From positions 64,001 through 128,000 of IMG/VR virus record IMGVR_UViG_3300037400_005024: DNA of 64,000 bases; one strand, 5' to 3'. The DNA is from a virus (lineage: Duplodnaviria; Caudoviricetes). Positions 12,062 through 60,695 of this stretch are shown here, piece after piece; the stretch's first letter is position 1, and each line of letters begins with the position of its first letter. Both the position numbers and the translations under genes were made by a program. The notes below the pieces were generated by a model, which saw only the letters and a program-made list of their open reading frames with translations, was not told where the DNA came from and did not search any database.

Positions 12062-13648
12062 TTAAATTTTTAAAACTGACTCTTTAACGCTGTATCCTTC
12101 AGGATAATATGATGTTTTCAATCTATGCTGATATTGTTTATAAAAAGTACCTGAGTATTTTCTAGTGCCTAGATTATCAACTAAATCAAATACAGTAAAT
12201 TTTGATTTTGAATCATGTTTTCTGATTCCTCTACCAATTGACTGTGTTACTGTTGTGTATGCTTTCAATGGACTTGCAAAAATCATATTATGCAAATTCT
12301 TAATGTTGACACCTGTACTTAAGATGGAATAGTTGGAAACTAAAATTGCTCCTGAATCATTTTCAAGAATCAATCTTGTCTTTTCTCTAACTTTTGCGTC
12401 ATCTTCGCCGTTTATAAAGTAAACATGATAATTTTTCTGAAAATCAAATGAGTACTTTCCAGTGATATCTTTATTTTCTACATTTACATCTGGAAAGAGT
12501 TTTTTCATTATTTCTAAGTATAAATCTTTACCATGCTGAGTATGAGAAAACAAAATCAAAGAATTTTCATTTTTCTTCATTAAAGAGACACCTAAGTTAC
12601 AGATGAAATCATTTCTTGACTCATTCTCTTTGATGAATTTCAATTGCTCTAACCATGTACGGCACTCTCTAACCTCTGTTTTGAATTCTGGCGAATAATC
12701 TATAATAATTGATTTAATTGTGATAGGAGTGCCTAAACCACGTTCTATAAGCTCACGAGAACTAATGTATTTTGTGCTTTCACCAAAAAGTCCAATTAGT
12801 CTATATAACAAAATAGGATCTTCTGGTAAAGTTCCTGTAAATCCAAATCTGTATTTAGTATCTAATAGTGATGTTGCAATTTCTGATGAAACTTCACCAG
12901 CGTTTTTGTGCACCTCATCATTGATGATGACATCGTATTTAATACTTTTATTAAGTTCATCTTTATACTGAATCATAGATTGCCAAGTTGAAATTAAAAC
13001 ACTTGATTTGAAATCTGTTTTATTTCCTGCACCTAAGATATCAGTATTTTCAGATAATTCTTTAAGATTATATGAGTCAATATCAGCTTTAAATTGAGTC
13101 AATAAGTTAATATTTGGAACTAGTAATAAAACTCTTTTTCCGTGAACTCTGAAAAAGTCTGCTAATAAAGCGATGACTGCCGATTTGCCACTGCCTGTAC
13201 ATAGAAGATTGATATGTTTTACATTAAGAATTGATTCAATAAAACATTTTAACTGATAATCATACGGTTTAAATGGCAATTTATCTAAGTTATTTTTAAG
13301 ATAATCTTTAATTTCTTCTATAGAAAAATCAGTTTTTAAATCTTCTCGTTGTCCTATAAGTTTTAAATGACCATTGTATACAATTAAAGAATCATTTACG
13401 TGTTTTGTAAAATAAACAAATGGTGATTTAAAACCTCTTTGAACTAAAGGATTGAAATAAGCACCTGGCTCTTCAACTTTTAATCTGTCGGCAATTTTAT
13501 GAAGGTCATTTTCAGGTCCTGTGATTTTTGAAAAGGACTCATTTAATTTCTGGACTTGAATCATTTTTCCTACTTTAGTTAAAAATGCCGTTATTATGTG
13601 ATAACGGCAAAGTAATTGAGTAATTAAAAGGAATTCAAAGGAATTCAA
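12062..13648 (-). CDS. uvsW: UvsW-like SF2 DNA helicase (real start probably MIQVQK near 13564)
   Basis: PYDYQ, TGSGKS, DEVH, GFTGT, QSIGRGIR, DLVD. Confidence 0.9.
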   Translation of the reverse strand: MNSFEFLLITQLLCRYHIITAFLTKVGKMIQVQKLNESFSKITGPENDLHKIADRLKVEEPGAYFNPLVQRGFKSPFVYFTKHVNDSLIVYNGHLKLIGQREDLKTDFSIEEIKDYLKNNLDKLPFKPYDYQLKCFIESILNVKHINLLCTGSGKSAVIALLADFFRVHGKRVLLLVPNINLLTQFKADIDSYNLKELSENTDILGAGNKTDFKSSVLISTWQSMIQYKDELNKSIKYDVIINDEVHKNAGEVSSEIATSLLDTKYRFGFTGTLPEDPILLYRLIGLFGESTKYISSRELIERGLGTPITIKSIIIDYSPEFKTEVRECRTWLEQLKFIKENESRNDFICNLGVSLMKKNENSLILFSHTQHGKDLYLEIMKKLFPDVNVENKDITGKYSFDFQKNYHVYFINGEDDAKVREKTRLILENDSGAILVSNYSILSTGVNIKNLHNMIFASPLKAYTTVTQSIGRGIRKHDSKSKFTVFDLVDNLGTRKYSGTFYKQYQHRLKTSYYPEGYSVKESVLKI

Positions 13649-27874: not shown

Positions 27875-27931
27875 TCTGAGAGTTCCTTCCCAAGAGTTTG
27901 GTAAGATTTGTTGTAAACAACAGACTCACCG
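27875..27931 (-). mobile_element. 57-bp remnant of the tnpB 3-prime end/omega-RNA 5-prime part
   Basis: Reverse complement CGGTGAGTCTGTTGTTTACAACAAATCTTACCAAACTCTTGGGAAGGAACTCTCAGA matches 60509-60565 with 3 mismatches. Confidence 0.9.
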
Positions 27932-27932
27932 T

Positions 27933-28376
27933 TTATAACAATAAGTAATTAGGTATTTGCAAATCTAATTTTAAATATTTATTATTTTTTAATTCTATTG
28001 TTTTATTTAAACAATCAAATTCTGAATTTCCTAAACCACTCTCAAAGTTATGTTTCACAATAGCAATTTGAAAATAAGTGAGTTCCATATTGTAAAAATT
28101 TTCTTTAAGATTTAAGTACTCAATTAGTAATTTCTTTTCTCTGTTATTAAAGATCCAAGGTTGTAAACCATTTTCATCTTTATGGATAACATATTTTGGT
28201 TCAGTAAACTTTATTCTTGCAACCTTAGTTGCTGTTCTTAAGGAGTTACTATCATAGAGTTTAAAGTAAGAATTTCTAATTCTTCCAATTCCAGGATTAA
28301 CTGTACATAAAACATCATCGTTTCTAAAAACCGTTGACATTTCATTTAAAAATTCACTAAATCCTTTTAACACCAT
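27933..28376 (-). CDS. Hypothetical protein with CTS-like N-terminus
   Basis: AGGAG RBS; MVLKGFSEFLNE. Confidence 0.7.
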   Translation of the reverse strand: MVLKGFSEFLNEMSTVFRNDDVLCTVNPGIGRIRNSYFKLYDSNSLRTATKVARIKFTEPKYVIHKDENGLQPWIFNNREKKLLIEYLNLKENFYNMELTYFQIAIVKHNFESGLGNSEFDCLNKTIELKNNKYLKLDLQIPNYLLL

Positions 28377-29095: not shown

Positions 29096-29212
29096 AAACA
29101 TCAAAGTTTAATTTATATTTTATATTTTAAAACAATTCAAACAAAAGGTTTAAAGGTCCAAAAAATTTTAAATTTTAAACAACCATTCACATATATCTCT
29201 TTAGGGATATAT

Positions 29213-29399
29213 CTATCTGGATGTTAGATTGTGTGACCTACATCTACCCTTCAGGGTAGATGCTTCCATTTAGAACTACAGAAGTTGTAATTCTAGTTCA
29301 GACATTTGGGACTTGTGCGTAGCATAGAAATCCAAATGTTTGAAGGTTTTATACTCCGAGAGATCCTTCAAAAGAGTTTGGTGAGATTTGTTGTAAACA
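29213..29399 (-). ncRNA. Stand-alone TnpB omega-RNA (reRNA); predicted guide ACAATCTAACATCCAGATAG
   Basis: Three hairpins with compensatory changes relative to the cis copy; downstream hairpin ATATATCCCTAAAGAGATATAT. Confidence 0.7.
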
Positions 29400-29470
29400 G
29401 TTTATATAAAATCTAAACGTCTGTATATATGAACCTTTAGGTTCATATTTTTTTTATCTGTTGGTTTTGT
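29233..29470 (-). mobile_element. Non-autonomous IS200/IS605 mini-element: left-end hairpin, full omega-RNA scaffold, right-end hairpin
   Basis: Preceded by TTTAT; hairpin ATATGAACCTAAAGGTTCATAT; 29399-29233 aligns colinearly with tnpB 60521-60675; ends in TCAC. Confidence 0.8.
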
Positions 29471-29557
29471 ATAAAGACTTAACAATTGTGATATTTCTGT
29501 CTTGGTCTTTAAATTTTAGTGTTACATTTCAAGATGAAGTGACATTTTTTAACTCTG

Positions 29558-30136
29558 TTATTTGATTGTAAATGTTGGGTGTTCACAGTTTATTATACCG
29601 ACGAAATAGCCAATTGCGTTTGCTTCTATACTAAACGGCCCTGATGCAACAGTAGAGCCGGATGCATCATGAGTTACTGTATAAGTGCCGTTCCAGTGGT
29701 AAGTGTAAGCTCCGATATAGTCAGTCCAATCTCCCATAAATACTTTCATCTGTGAACCTTCATTAGTAGAGGTAATATTTGTATGCACAGTGTAACCAGC
29801 CATATTAGTGTATACACGCTCAATCCGGCCTGTAAAATGTCCAGTCACCAAATTATCATTATTACTAAAAACTACACCGCATACCTCTACCTGTATATAC
29901 ACATGACCATTGGCTCCAAATGATAACCTACGCTTATAAGCTGCTCGTGTACTTCCTACTTTCATTGGCGACAGGGTGTAAATATACTCGCCTGATGTGA
30001 CATCAGACTCTGCACTGCCTGTAAAACATGGAACATAACTTGAGCCAACCTTTAAACTCGGTGAGGTTAATTTATTAGGCAATGCCAGCAGTGAATACTG
30101 TTTACCGTTTGACGCTGTAAAATTAAGTGTAGTCAT
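29558..30136 (-). CDS. Putative receptor-binding/adhesin protein, paralog of 32093-32812
   Basis: Shared N-terminal NKLTSPSLKVG..YVPC / NKITTPSIAVG..YIPL and PMKV; beta-rich. Confidence 0.5.
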   Translation of the reverse strand: MTTLNFTASNGKQYSLLALPNKLTSPSLKVGSSYVPCFTGSAESDVTSGEYIYTLSPMKVGSTRAAYKRRLSFGANGHVYIQVEVCGVVFSNNDNLVTGHFTGRIERVYTNMAGYTVHTNITSTNEGSQMKVFMGDWTDYIGAYTYHWNGTYTVTHDASGSTVASGPFSIEANAIGYFVGIINCEHPTFTIK

Positions 30137-31073: not shown

Positions 31074-31138
31074 TAAACACTCTCGGTTGTTAAAACATTG
31101 TTCATTTTAGAACAATAGAAATTTTCAAATATATTTAT

Positions 31139-31770
31139 ACAAAACTAACAGATAAAAATATGAACCTTTAGGTTTATATACAGCCGTTGATTTTATATAA
31201 AGTCATATAAAAATATGACTTTTAAAAACTTTTAAATTTTCTTTTTAATCTTCTTTAAAATCTTTTCTTTATTTAAAGGCTTTTCATAAATTTTAACATC
31301 TTTTAAATCATAAAAATTGTGTAATGTGTCTTCTATAACAAAGTATAAGTTTAAAACACCTCCAGAATGAACTGCTAAAAAACCACCAGTTTCTGATAAT
31401 TGATGTTTAACAGCGTGTTCTAAACAGCGCTGAGCAGTATTTTTAAGTTCTTGAATATCTGGAATGTACTCTTTAAAATCAGAAGTCCAGTACTTCCAAT
31501 TTAGTGCTTTCATTGCTTTCTCAACACGCCCAAAGTCAAATTCTTCTAAAATATTTTTAATCTGTTGTGTATAATTAAAGTTTCCTTCTAAAACAAGAAG
31601 TTTTGAAGACTCATTAGAATGGTCGTACTTAATATCAAATTTAATTTCTTTCATAGTTTTATTCCTCTTTTAAATATTATAACAACTTTTCTTTAATTGT
31701 TCTATATGTCCAAAAATTACATTTTTGAAATGTTTAGAAGCTATTGGCTTAAAGGTCAATAGTAGTTCAT
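31139..31770 (+). mobile_element. IS200/IS605-derived shell (left end 31139-31200, right end about 31730-31770) enclosing a phage gene
   Basis: TTTAT|ACAAAACTAACAGATAAAAATATGAACCTTTAGGT matches the 29470 left end; CTATTGGCTTAAAGGTCAATAGTAGTTCAT matches the tnpB right end. Confidence 0.7.
31232..31654 (-). CDS. Hypothetical phage protein
   Basis: GAGGA RBS; own middle-type motif at 31676-31715. Confidence 0.75.
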   Translation of the reverse strand: MKEIKFDIKYDHSNESSKLLVLEGNFNYTQQIKNILEEFDFGRVEKAMKALNWKYWTSDFKEYIPDIQELKNTAQRCLEHAVKHQLSETGGFLAVHSGGVLNLYFVIEDTLHNFYDLKDVKIYEKPLNKEKILKKIKKKI

Positions 31771-31806
31771 ATAAATAATTAAAATCTTCAAGAAAATTTT
31801 AATATT

Positions 31807-48314: not shown

Positions 48315-49475
48315 TTAGGTAAAACCTGTGATGTTTTCTGATAGATTTGATGAAATACCTTGTACATAGTTAAAAGAATTTGTTTCTGAGTTATTTAAAC
48401 TCTTTTCTGAGTTATTTGAATTTATTTCAGAGTTATTTAAAATATTTTCAGAGTTCTGCAAACTTGTTTCAGAGTTGTTTGATAAGTTCTCTGAAACTTT
48501 TTCAACTTTTTCTGAGTTGTTTAAAATATTTTCTGTTTTTACAGAAACCCTTTCAACTATATTTGCAATTGCCTGAGTGTTATCATCTAATTCTGTTTTA
48601 TCACAGAACTTATGAAGTGCTTCAGAACGTGAATTTTTACTTATTATCTTTTTACAAGCACTCATTAAAGACTTAACTGTTCGAATCAACTTTCTGACAT
48701 AAGAATAATTTTCAGGAGACATTTTTCCGAGTAAATTAGTATTATTGAAAATATACTTCTTAAACTTTTCAAAATGTTTCTCGATATTCGCAGAATCAGA
48801 AATGCATTCTGAACCTAACTCTTCAATCTTTTCAAGACATTCTGTAATCTTCTCTTCTTCCGACTTTTCATTAAAAACCAGATTGTACAACTTTTTAGAA
48901 ATTTCTTCATCAGAAGCGTTGTCATCAATCTGTCTAGCTAAATTCAAGACATCAAGATCTTCGGAGTCCTCAGGAACTTCTTCGTTATCACTTGATCCTT
49001 GTGCTATAAACTCGATTGCTTTCATTAGTTCAGGATTGTTCAGAATAATCTGTTCATATTCCTTAACTAACTTTTCTTCTTCATCTGGAGACATTTTAGA
49101 AGTTTTTCTTGGTGTATTTTTTAAACGTTTGAAATACTGTACTTTAACTCCCTTTTCTCTTTTTGGAAAAAGTGTTATAGAATCATCTGTCTCAGAAATA
49201 ATCTTAAGATTTGTTTCAGAATCTTTAAACTTTTCAGTTTTACCTGTTAAAGTTGTTGTTAAGATATATGAAATTGTAACTGGACTTGATACACTTTCAA
49301 GTTCAATATCTTTCATAAATCTCTGACCATTGTAACCAGTGCATTTAAAAGGAATAATTTTTGACTTTCCATCAATAGTTAGTTCAATAACTGCTTGATA
49401 TACTGTTTTCTCAGGCAGAAAATCAAACATTAAAACGGTATTTCCAGTTTTTCTACTTTTTCTTGATGTAATCAT
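48315..49475 (-). CDS. Hypothetical protein with C-terminal 7-aa NNSE repeats
   Basis: AAGGA RBS; imperfect 21-bp tandem repeats at about 48375-48540. Confidence 0.7.
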   Translation of the reverse strand: MITSRKSRKTGNTVLMFDFLPEKTVYQAVIELTIDGKSKIIPFKCTGYNGQRFMKDIELESVSSPVTISYILTTTLTGKTEKFKDSETNLKIISETDDSITLFPKREKGVKVQYFKRLKNTPRKTSKMSPDEEEKLVKEYEQIILNNPELMKAIEFIAQGSSDNEEVPEDSEDLDVLNLARQIDDNASDEEISKKLYNLVFNEKSEEEKITECLEKIEELGSECISDSANIEKHFEKFKKYIFNNTNLLGKMSPENYSYVRKLIRTVKSLMSACKKIISKNSRSEALHKFCDKTELDDNTQAIANIVERVSVKTENILNNSEKVEKVSENLSNNSETSLQNSENILNNSEINSNNSEKSLNNSETNSFNYVQGISSNLSENITGFT

Positions 49476-59313: not shown

Positions 59314-60632
59314 TTGAAAAAGAAAATTTCTGAGAAAAATATCAAAGGATTAGTGTTAACACTAAAGCCTGATAATGCTCAGAAATTGCTTTTAGATAAA
59401 CATTTGAATGATACCAGATTCATTTATAATCAATATGTCGAAGAATATTTAAAAGCTATTAAAGAAGATAGACTTCCAGATTATAAAAATTATCAGGACC
59501 TACGTGCTGAACACGAATTTCTTAAAGGTTCTTATTCATGGACTCTTCATTGTGTTTTATATAAATTTAAACAGACTAATAAAATAAATAGATCTAAAAG
59601 ATCAAAAGGTCAAAAAGTCAAAAAGTAGGTCTAATTAAATTTAGATCTAAAAAGTCTCATTCAGATTATTTTTATACCAATAATGTAAAACTTTCATATG
59701 ATATTGCCTCTAAGTCAAATTCATATGTTTATATTCCAAAAATAGGTAATGTTAAATTCTTATGTAAAAATATTAAATCTGAATTTTTAAATGGTAAAAT
59801 TAAAACTTGTACTGTTAAAAGATCTAAGACTGGAGTTTACAAGATTTCGTTACTTGTCGAGATCGACAAAGTTTACGAAGAACGTAAAGATAATAAACAT
59901 ATTGGATTAGATTTCTCTTTAAGAGATTTCTTCGTTGACAGTTTTGGTGCGAAAGCACCAGAGTTCTCAACAAAGAGATCTAAGTTAGAATCACTTCAAA
60001 AGAAAATTGATTCTTTAAATACTCTTATTTCGAAGATGAGAAACAAGTCTGAGAAAAAGCGTAAGGTCTCTGTTAAAGCTCATCGCATAGCGATGAAACG
60101 TAACAAACTCTACGAAAGAGTTCATAATGTTCAAGTTGATTATATAAACAAGTTATCAAGAGATTTGTGTAAACACAATGAATTGATAGTACTTGAAAAT
60201 TTGAATCTTCAAGAAATGTCTGAAAGAACTTCTTATAACGATCCAGAAACTTCCACCAAAGGTGGTAATCATGGAAAATCTGTAAGTTTGTTACAATGGA
60301 GTTATTTTCTCAAAAAGTTAGAAGAGAACTCTGAAAAATTTGGAAATGTCATTGTCCTCGCGGACAAATTCTTTCCAAGTTCACAGATTTGTTCTAAGTG
60401 TAGAGAAAGACACCCAGAAATGAAAGATGTTACCAATCGTACACTAAAGTGTAAATGCGGTAATATAATAGATAGAGATTATAACTCAGCTCTTAATCTT
60501 TTAAAATTCGGTGAGTCTGTTGTTTACAACAAATCTTACCAAACTCTTGGAAAGGAACTTTCGGAGTATAAAGCTTTTAAGTGTTTAGATTTTTCAAGAT
60601 CAAAAGCACTTAAACTGGAATTAAGTATTTAA
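59314..60632 (+). pseudogene. tnpB: TnpB RNA-guided nuclease frameshifted by an 8-bp tandem duplication
   Basis: GTCAAAAA x2 at 59609-59624; removing one copy gives a 436-aa ORF with IGLDF, VLENL, CSKC/CKCG, DRDYNSALN. Confidence 0.9.
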
Positions 60633-60695
60633 TTCTAAATAGCAGTTATTGACCTAAAGGTCAATAGCAGTTCATAAATCGAACTTACCAATTCT
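60511..60695 (+). ncRNA. Cis omega-RNA overlapping the tnpB 3-prime end; right end TCAT at 60672-60675, guide AAATCGAACTTACCAATTCT
   Basis: Right-end hairpin TATTGACCTAAAGGTCAATA; structure conserved with the 29233-29399 copy. Confidence 0.75.

Follow-up and report, generated by a model that had tools for sequence, protein, structure and literature searches.

A probable PATE-like mini-element with a TnpB omegaRNA scaffold beside the tRNA genes of a T4-like phage

The PATEs of Geobacillus stearothermophilus often encode omegaRNAs that need TnpB in trans (Meers et al. 2023, PMC10055086). In the model put forward for IS605 elements, the TnpB-omegaRNA complex cuts a match to the right-end (RE) flank that is accompanied by a transposon-adjacent motif (TAM), that is, the element-free site, and recombination restores or copies the element (PMC10055086). 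TnpB-only IS200/IS605 elements were also reported in T4-like phages in 2010, namely ISCaje1-3 in the Campylobacter phages CP220 and CPt10 (PMC2853527). Phage T4 carries SegB, a free-standing homing endonuclease, in its tRNA region (reviewed in PMC13565253), and the solo vrRNAs of phage VIPR systems are guide-only loci that borrow their effector in trans (bioRxiv 10.64898/2026.10.15.759431).

The locus described here lies in a 64,000-bp stretch of DNA (the window), bases 64,001-128,000 of a 158,253-bp complete IMG/VR virus record with terminal repeats and a GC content of about 28%. Coordinates below refer to the window unless they are given as genome positions. The source is probably a T4-like phage of the gut; contigs related to it carry a T4-type capsid gene. 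Among the phages of INPHARED, the locus found tRNA matches only, and none for tnpB. The initial annotation had marked a stretch next to the tRNA cluster as a stand-alone mini-element, and this reading was borne out: a left end (LE), an omegaRNA, and an RE follow one another with no ORF, and the element has a 192-aa gene on one side and the tRNA operon on the other. Downstream of the mini-element come a promoter-like repeat and then four tRNA genes. The features of the locus are as follows.

29558-30136, minus strand: 192-aa gene, the upstream neighbor on the same strand
29213-29475, minus strand: the flagged stretch, 263 bases
29471-29475, minus strand: TTTAT, target or transposon-adjacent motif, read in the sequence directly 5' of the LE
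29396-29470, minus strand: LE (LE profile match, E = 1e-18)
29427-29448, minus strand: subterminal hairpin of the LE, 9 bp
29399-29406, minus strand: late-promoter-like box, 6/8 match to TATAAATA, at the LE/omegaRNA deletion junction
29233-29379, minus strand: omegaRNA scaffold, 147 nt, colinear with the tnpB 3' end and the RE
29373-29377 with 29353-29357, minus strand: P0
29361-29365 with 29235-29239, minus strand: pseudoknot
29297-29344, minus strand: stem 1
29272-29294, minus strand: stem 2
29240-29263, minus strand: stem 3, which is the RE hairpin
29233-29236, minus strand: terminal TCAC of the RE
29213-29232, minus strand: predicted 20-nt guide, the 3' flank of the RE, placed from knowledge of the IS605/TnpB family
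29180-29232, minus strand: LE', a putative decayed second left end that abuts the RE and contains the predicted guide

The annotated minus-strand order of TTTAT, LE hairpin, a segment colinear with the tnpB 3' end, and TCAC could be read directly, the colinear segment being 147 nt. From LE to RE the mini-element measures 238 nt, with a short AT-rich junction between the LE and the scaffold. No ORF of at least 100 aa overlaps 29213-29475, and no direct repeat flanking the mini-element was found on reading the sequence. The 5' part of the colinear segment is 82% identical over 72 nt to the tnpB 3' end (BLAST E = 1e-14 against the 158-kb genome), a similarity far beyond chance. The LE of the mini-element folds as DNA with z = -2.95 and hardly differs from the LE of a complete LE-tnpB-RE element in a related phage (locus L030). 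Indeed, a distinct LE and a distinct RE, each with a subterminal hairpin, are common to the mini-element and to the full-length members of the family. All 23 distinct REs that we collected end in TCAC or TCAT except one, which ends in TCAA, and TTTAT precedes about 13 of 17 family LEs, the variants being ATTAT and TTCAT. Taken together, the locus is very probably a non-autonomous IS200/IS605 mini-element of the tnpB-only, IS1341-like group, PATE- or MITE-like in form, from which tnpB appears to have been deleted with the scaffold left complete.

A gene-less omegaRNA mini-element of this sort is a kind of element already described. Like the PATEs of Geobacillus, it has an LE and an RE, contains no protein gene, and keeps an omegaRNA for a TnpB from another element. 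Unlike them, it lies in a virulent-type T4-like phage and not in a bacterial chromosome, its sisters carry a T4-type late-promoter box, and its scaffold type is without a matching tnpB in its own genome. Geobacillus moreover has a cognate TnpA, whereas none was found in this phage genome: a search of six records, this complete genome and those of five related phages, detected no Y1 TnpA (PF01797), and a host-encoded TnpA may move the mini-element. ISCaje1-3 are similar in content and setting, being TnpB-only insertion sequences at different loci of related T4-like genomes; they differ in that they are full elements, one of them with tnpA, and gene-less omegaRNA mini-elements are not described in PMC2853527. 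What is particular to the copy studied here is its tandem arrangement with a putative decayed LE, a scaffold type that does not match the resident tnpB types, and the failure to find a natural target.

To examine the omegaRNA scaffold, we folded it and aligned it with other copies. Both the minimum-free-energy and the centroid folds contained all three stems (200 shuffles, z = -4.04). In IMG/VR, the exact pattern of the invariant 5' motif was matched at 17 loci on six phage contigs, and the family alignment comprised 20 copies, with a structure of P0, three stems, and a long-range pseudoknot. With this structure, which we specified ourselves and derived from the aligned sequences themselves, 96.3% of the alignment cells paired, as against 27-45% in slid-partner controls. 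Both sides had changed in 17 of the 38 pairs, and none of 500 shuffles reached the observed values. The annotation had stated that the three stems differ in sequence from the tnpB-linked copy and still pair, and that the pseudoknot covaries. Both statements held over the 20 copies, in which stems 1, 2, and 3 and the pseudoknot all covary and the stems are kept; at its center, the pseudoknot has a C-G pair in 12 copies, A-U in six, U-A in one, and U-G in one. The family covariance model scored the flagged copy, itself in the training set, at 150.8 bits, and it recovered one copy outside the training set (103.6 bits). The curated-model search that had been proposed as a check gave no support, as no Rfam 15 family matched either the flagged copy or the tnpB-linked copy at the gathering threshold or at E values up to 10; this indicates only that the curated models do not cover this lineage.

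The genome encodes three tnpB genes, one of which has a linked omegaRNA in the window.

59314-60632, plus strand: tnpB1, with matches to HTH_OrfB_IS605, OrfB_IS605, and Cas12f1-like_TNB (Pfam) split over two frames
60541-60675, plus strand: tnpB1-linked omegaRNA of the 'A' scaffold type (133.9 bits, covariance model), with an RE ending in TCAT
genome 6380-7669, outside the window, minus strand: tnpB2, 429 aa, intact
genome 15263-16495: tnpB3, of a different lineage and with an unrelated 3' end

The tnpB gene annotated 31 kb from the mini-element is thus present, but that copy, tnpB1, contains an exact tandem duplication of 8 nt (59609-59624) that breaks its reading frame, and the usable gene is tnpB2, outside the window. 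The two genes are 92% identical in DNA; tnpB2 has the 8-mer once and is intact. We also considered a programmed -1 frameshift for tnpB1 and rejected it, since tnpB2, in which the 8-mer occurs only once, reads through. Because of the frameshift, tnpB1 is not a candidate for the active nuclease. TnpB2 is a full-length ORF (PF07282, 56 bits) with the RuvC D-E-D triad and a zinc-finger (TNB) domain, and a TATAAATA box lies upstream of its gene. Both tnpB1 and tnpB2 are without a left end, and the upstream sequence that they have in common starts about 37 nt before the start codon. Both carry the 'A' scaffold type, unlike the flagged mini-element; none of the three tnpB genes of this genome carries the scaffold type of the mini-element, and tnpB-linked copies of that type were found only in other phages (loci L021 and L041).

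The closest structural reference for TnpB2 and its predicted RNA is the ISDra2 TnpB-omegaRNA complex (PDB 8H1J, 8EXA). TnpB2 aligns with ISDra2 TnpB end to end (residues 11-395 to 8H1J, E = 8e-31), with the RuvC residues D, E, and D conserved. As in ISDra2, the RNA shares sequence with both the tnpB 3' end and the RE, contains several stems and a long-range pseudoknot, and would take its guide from the transposon boundary. The differences are the low protein identity, visible in the E value of only 8e-31, a TAM that would here be TTTAT, and the absence of a matching Rfam model. TnpBs that are 78-80% identical to one another carry different stem types, so that the stem sequence is seemingly not the determinant of specificity. 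Use of the flagged scaffold by TnpB2 is therefore plausible on sequence grounds.

We then surveyed the other copies of the family. The genome contains four further LE copies, and related phages have many. Besides the flagged mini-element itself (B, 29213-29475, minus strand) and a solo LE (H), the following copies and fragments are discussed here.

genome 19,001-19,264: sister mini-element B2, of the same scaffold type, 92% identical
genome 131,244-132,463, outside the window, plus strand: mini-element E, of the other ('A') scaffold type
31132-31205, plus strand: LE of element F, after TTTAT (LE profile E = 1e-16)
31735-31771, plus strand: RE hairpin of element F, ending in TCAT, 86% identical to the RE hairpin of tnpB1
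27875-27931, minus strand: fragment C, an orphan 5' omegaRNA piece of 57 nt (last tnpB codons), matching the tnpB1 3' end at 92% identity over 62 nt
genome 12,449-12,616, outside the window, minus strand: mini-element I, with an LE'-type left end at 12,562-12,616
genome 133,739-133,790, outside the window, minus strand: remnant J, about 50 nt, with an LE'-type start, one hairpin, and an RE tail

These copies show various degrees of loss. Mini-element E has an LE-omegaRNA junction identical to that of the flagged copy; it stops within the third stem, and its RE tail resumes about 1 kb further on. Mini-element I continues from its left end with some 95 nt of unrelated sequence, which includes a TATAAATA box, and then with an RE hairpin of the flagged type and a TCAC end; almost the whole omegaRNA is gone. 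The ends of element F bracket a 140-aa ORF on the opposite strand (31232-31654, minus), and TATAAATA boxes abut both of its junctions (31132-31139, minus; 31770-31777, plus). This ORF was considered as a TnpA candidate and rejected, with no Pfam and no PHROG match. Fragment C directly adjoins, as a fusion, the stop codon of an ORF (27933-28376) downstream of the tRNA cluster. We also noted that fragment C and LE' (29180-29232) bracket the tRNA operon in one orientation; the two could be the remains of an element with the tRNAs as cargo, or a coincidence.

Outside this genome, full LE-tnpB-RE elements and many mini-elements were found in five related IMG/VR contigs, with one to four tnpB copies per contig and the order LE, late-promoter-like box, tnpB, omegaRNA, and RE in the full elements. 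A scan of 185,579 species genomes (GTDB) detected the motif only in a single "Bacilli" MAG ('Bacilli bacterium fecal_MAG_453', GenBank JBGVCU01, 1.7 Mb, loci L054-L061). A bacterial carrier was rejected: the bin holds a T4-type Gp23 capsid gene, and the contigs with the motif have 25-28% GC and at least 10 mini-elements of the form LE, TATAAATA, omegaRNA, which points to mis-binned phage DNA. In these searches the family was seen only in contigs read as those of T4-like phages. The mini-elements fall into several classes according to their internal deletion junction, and each class occurs at several loci. The occurrence of one junction at several loci suggests that mini-elements arise repeatedly and then spread as such, and LE and scaffold parts with different nearest relatives indicate that copies recombine with each other.

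To characterize the insertion site, we compared the surroundings of the 192-aa gene in relatives. Its homologues came from a large protein collection only; IMG/VR and the JGI metagenomes held no relatives of it, and it is absent from the five related IMG/VR records. In the closest relative (L052, 192-aa protein 92% identical), the same spacer leads to the same TTTAT, after which the sequence is unrelated. Another relative (L050, 75% identical) likewise keeps TTTAT, from which some 430 nt of different sequence lead to the tRNA promoter. Both relatives thus lack the element precisely at the 3' edge of TTTAT; the left junction is exact, the right side differs by about 430 nt, and no scarless empty site was seen. 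A third relative (L049:3600-4300) has a tnpB3-lineage remnant between the 192-aa gene and tRNA-Met, and after it, directly before the tRNA promoter, a better-preserved LE'. LE' remnants stand just before the tRNA promoter in L049 and L050 alike. In three more relatives (L048, L051, and L053), the spacer holds an inverted RE fragment, and the 192-aa ORF is followed by a gene of opposite orientation. This spacer is a hot spot in which different relatives carry different element ends.

Several side observations were made in these comparisons. In L051:3900-4250, the product of the adjacent gene matches PF11195 (Tad2-like), a family that includes anti-Thoeris proteins, and the inverted RE fragment that precedes this gene is of the tnpB2 type. 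The spacer itself (29476-29557, minus strand), some 80 nt located 3' of the stop codon of the 192-aa gene, is kept nearly base for base in relatives, although their 192-aa-type proteins are only 72-92% identical, and it may contain a functional RNA or signal. Elsewhere in the window, a repeat scan revealed a 21-nt tandem repeat array of at least seven units (48356-48575) within an ORF (48315-49475, minus strand).

In IS605 elements, the guide is the 3' flank of every right end. The annotation had called the guide of the mini-element differently programmed; a 3' flank is indeed present, but this flank is the start of LE', and the predicted guide would be the first 20 nt of that putative decayed end. 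In local alignment, LE' and the left end of mini-element I (genome 12,562-12,616) reach a score of 45, which none of 2000 shuffles equalled. That left end and the LE' at the orthologous position in L049 resemble the canonical LE, each at p = 0.001. Compared directly with the canonical LE, the flank at 29180-29232 is not significant, so that the assignment of LE' is a transitive one. On this reading of the sequence, two elements would stand in tandem behind one TTTAT, with the older, decayed left end 3' of the mini-element.

We searched for targets of this guide, as the annotation had proposed. No TTTAT-plus-guide site was found in the genome, the fetched relative loci, IMG/VR, or the JGI metagenomes. 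The sole other match in the genome is 19/20 at 133,762-133,781 (minus strand), at the start of remnant J, where it follows TAAAT and not TTTAT. The guide alone had no hits in IMG/VR; in the JGI metagenomes it matched three contigs of one bacterial locus of about 40% GC, which we take from a reading of its ORFs to be Bacteroidota-like, and there it is preceded by CAATT. This locus was rejected as a target for want of TTTAT, given also that a few chance 20-mers are expected in about 10^12 bases (estimated size). With up to three mismatches, 23 family guides gave only AT-rich chance hits in the genome and the collected loci, bar one self match. The suggestion that the guide cuts related phages without the insert is weakened, as the insert-free alleles of L052 and L050 are unrelated after TTTAT and the guide would not cut them.

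The account that we favor as a whole, and to which we give about an even chance, combines a PATE-like mini-element with transcription, trans loading by TnpB2, and homing or retention. Minus-strand transcription would yield the RNA, by read-through out of the preceding gene or, at a low level, from the damaged promoter box. TnpB2 would load this omegaRNA in trans and cut TTTAT followed by the mini-element's own 3' flank in genomes without the insert, and recombination would copy the mini-element into the cut allele, as selfish homing or retention. The proposed outcome resembles that of SegB in that the locus would be inherited preferentially in mixed infection through cutting of the element-free allele, and the mini-element also lies at a tRNA gene cluster. 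It differs from SegB in that it would be RNA-guided, with the nuclease encoded elsewhere, and homing is here a proposal. The likeness to the solo vrRNAs of VIPR systems is conceptual only, their effector, RNA, and silencing mechanism being unrelated.

Taken by itself, the use of this omegaRNA in trans by TnpB2 seems to us slightly short of an even call. The annotation's claim of a second guide usable in trans stands in so far as the scaffold appears constrained and an intact TnpB2 is encoded, and falls short in that no tnpB of the same type was found in this genome, nor any target in the searches. Against trans use there is also the state of this copy at the LE/omegaRNA junction: the box matches at 6/8, and the deletion junction has removed its last two bases together with the 5' arm of the first omegaRNA hairpin. 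Sister mini-elements (B2 and those of the MAG) have an exact TATAAATA at the equivalent place. The 5' hairpin appears dispensable, as some family mini-elements without it keep the rest of the scaffold.

The main rival to trans use is that the mini-element is an inert young relic, a hitch-hiking deletion derivative whose RNA is unused and whose intact look reflects recent origin or gene conversion. The damaged box and the missing hairpin arm would fit such a relic, as would the absence of its cognate tnpB type from the genome, the lack of a guide target, and the many decayed family fragments around it (C, I, J, H, LE', and the split E). Recombination between copies, apparent from the different nearest relatives of LE and scaffold, points the same way. 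The comparison with B2 argues against it and for constraint on the scaffold: pairing survives all 12 differences between the two copies, which include two full compensatory doubles, one of them in stem 1, and one change from wobble to Watson-Crick. That some mini-elements have lost the 5' hairpin and kept the rest of the scaffold also counts against an unused RNA. We therefore regard the relic as possible, and on balance somewhat unlikely.

Decidedly unlikely, in our view, is a dispersed, array-like OMEGA system without TnpA, in which one late TnpB would serve promoter-equipped, guide-only mini-elements that home between co-infecting phages, some of their guides being aimed at rival or older left ends. 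Another proposal is that of a domesticated weapon or regulator, in which guide-only mini-elements would let one late TnpB cut rival phages or elements and the present copy would be aimed at LE'-type ends. Each phage has several mini-elements, many of them with an exact late-promoter box, and the guide lies in LE' and has its 19/20 match at a second LE'-type start in the genome. That match, however, follows TAAAT, IMG/VR holds no match to the guide, and the LE' regions of L049 and L050 differ from it. Furthermore, the guides of all family copies are local flanks, none of which matches a TTTAT site elsewhere in the data searched, and we consider a weapon or regulator very unlikely.

A role at the DNA level only, with the hairpins serving as single-stranded signals for a transposase or for cassette-swapping recombination, would suit the double function of stem 3 as the RE hairpin, the bracketing of ordinary phage genes by LE/RE pairs as in element F, and the hot spot after the 192-aa gene, but is highly improbable, because stems 1 and 2 and the pseudoknot covary too and no TnpA was found in the six phage records. 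In known IS200/IS605 biology, stem 1, stem 2, and the pseudoknot belong to the omegaRNA and not to transposase recognition, and stem 1 has no known role at the DNA level.

For the flagged copy the result is a cautionary one, its guide being merely the neighboring decayed transposon end, with no natural target found. For the family, it adds a well-documented case of TnpB guide RNAs that persist and multiply as gene-less mini-elements in phages of virulent type, where a transposase is apparently lacking. Full-length and mini forms occur here side by side with several variants of the scaffold and with covariation, and make up a convenient natural data set on the omegaRNA features that TnpB tolerates. 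The family could serve as well for tests of RNA-guided homing from one co-infecting phage to another.
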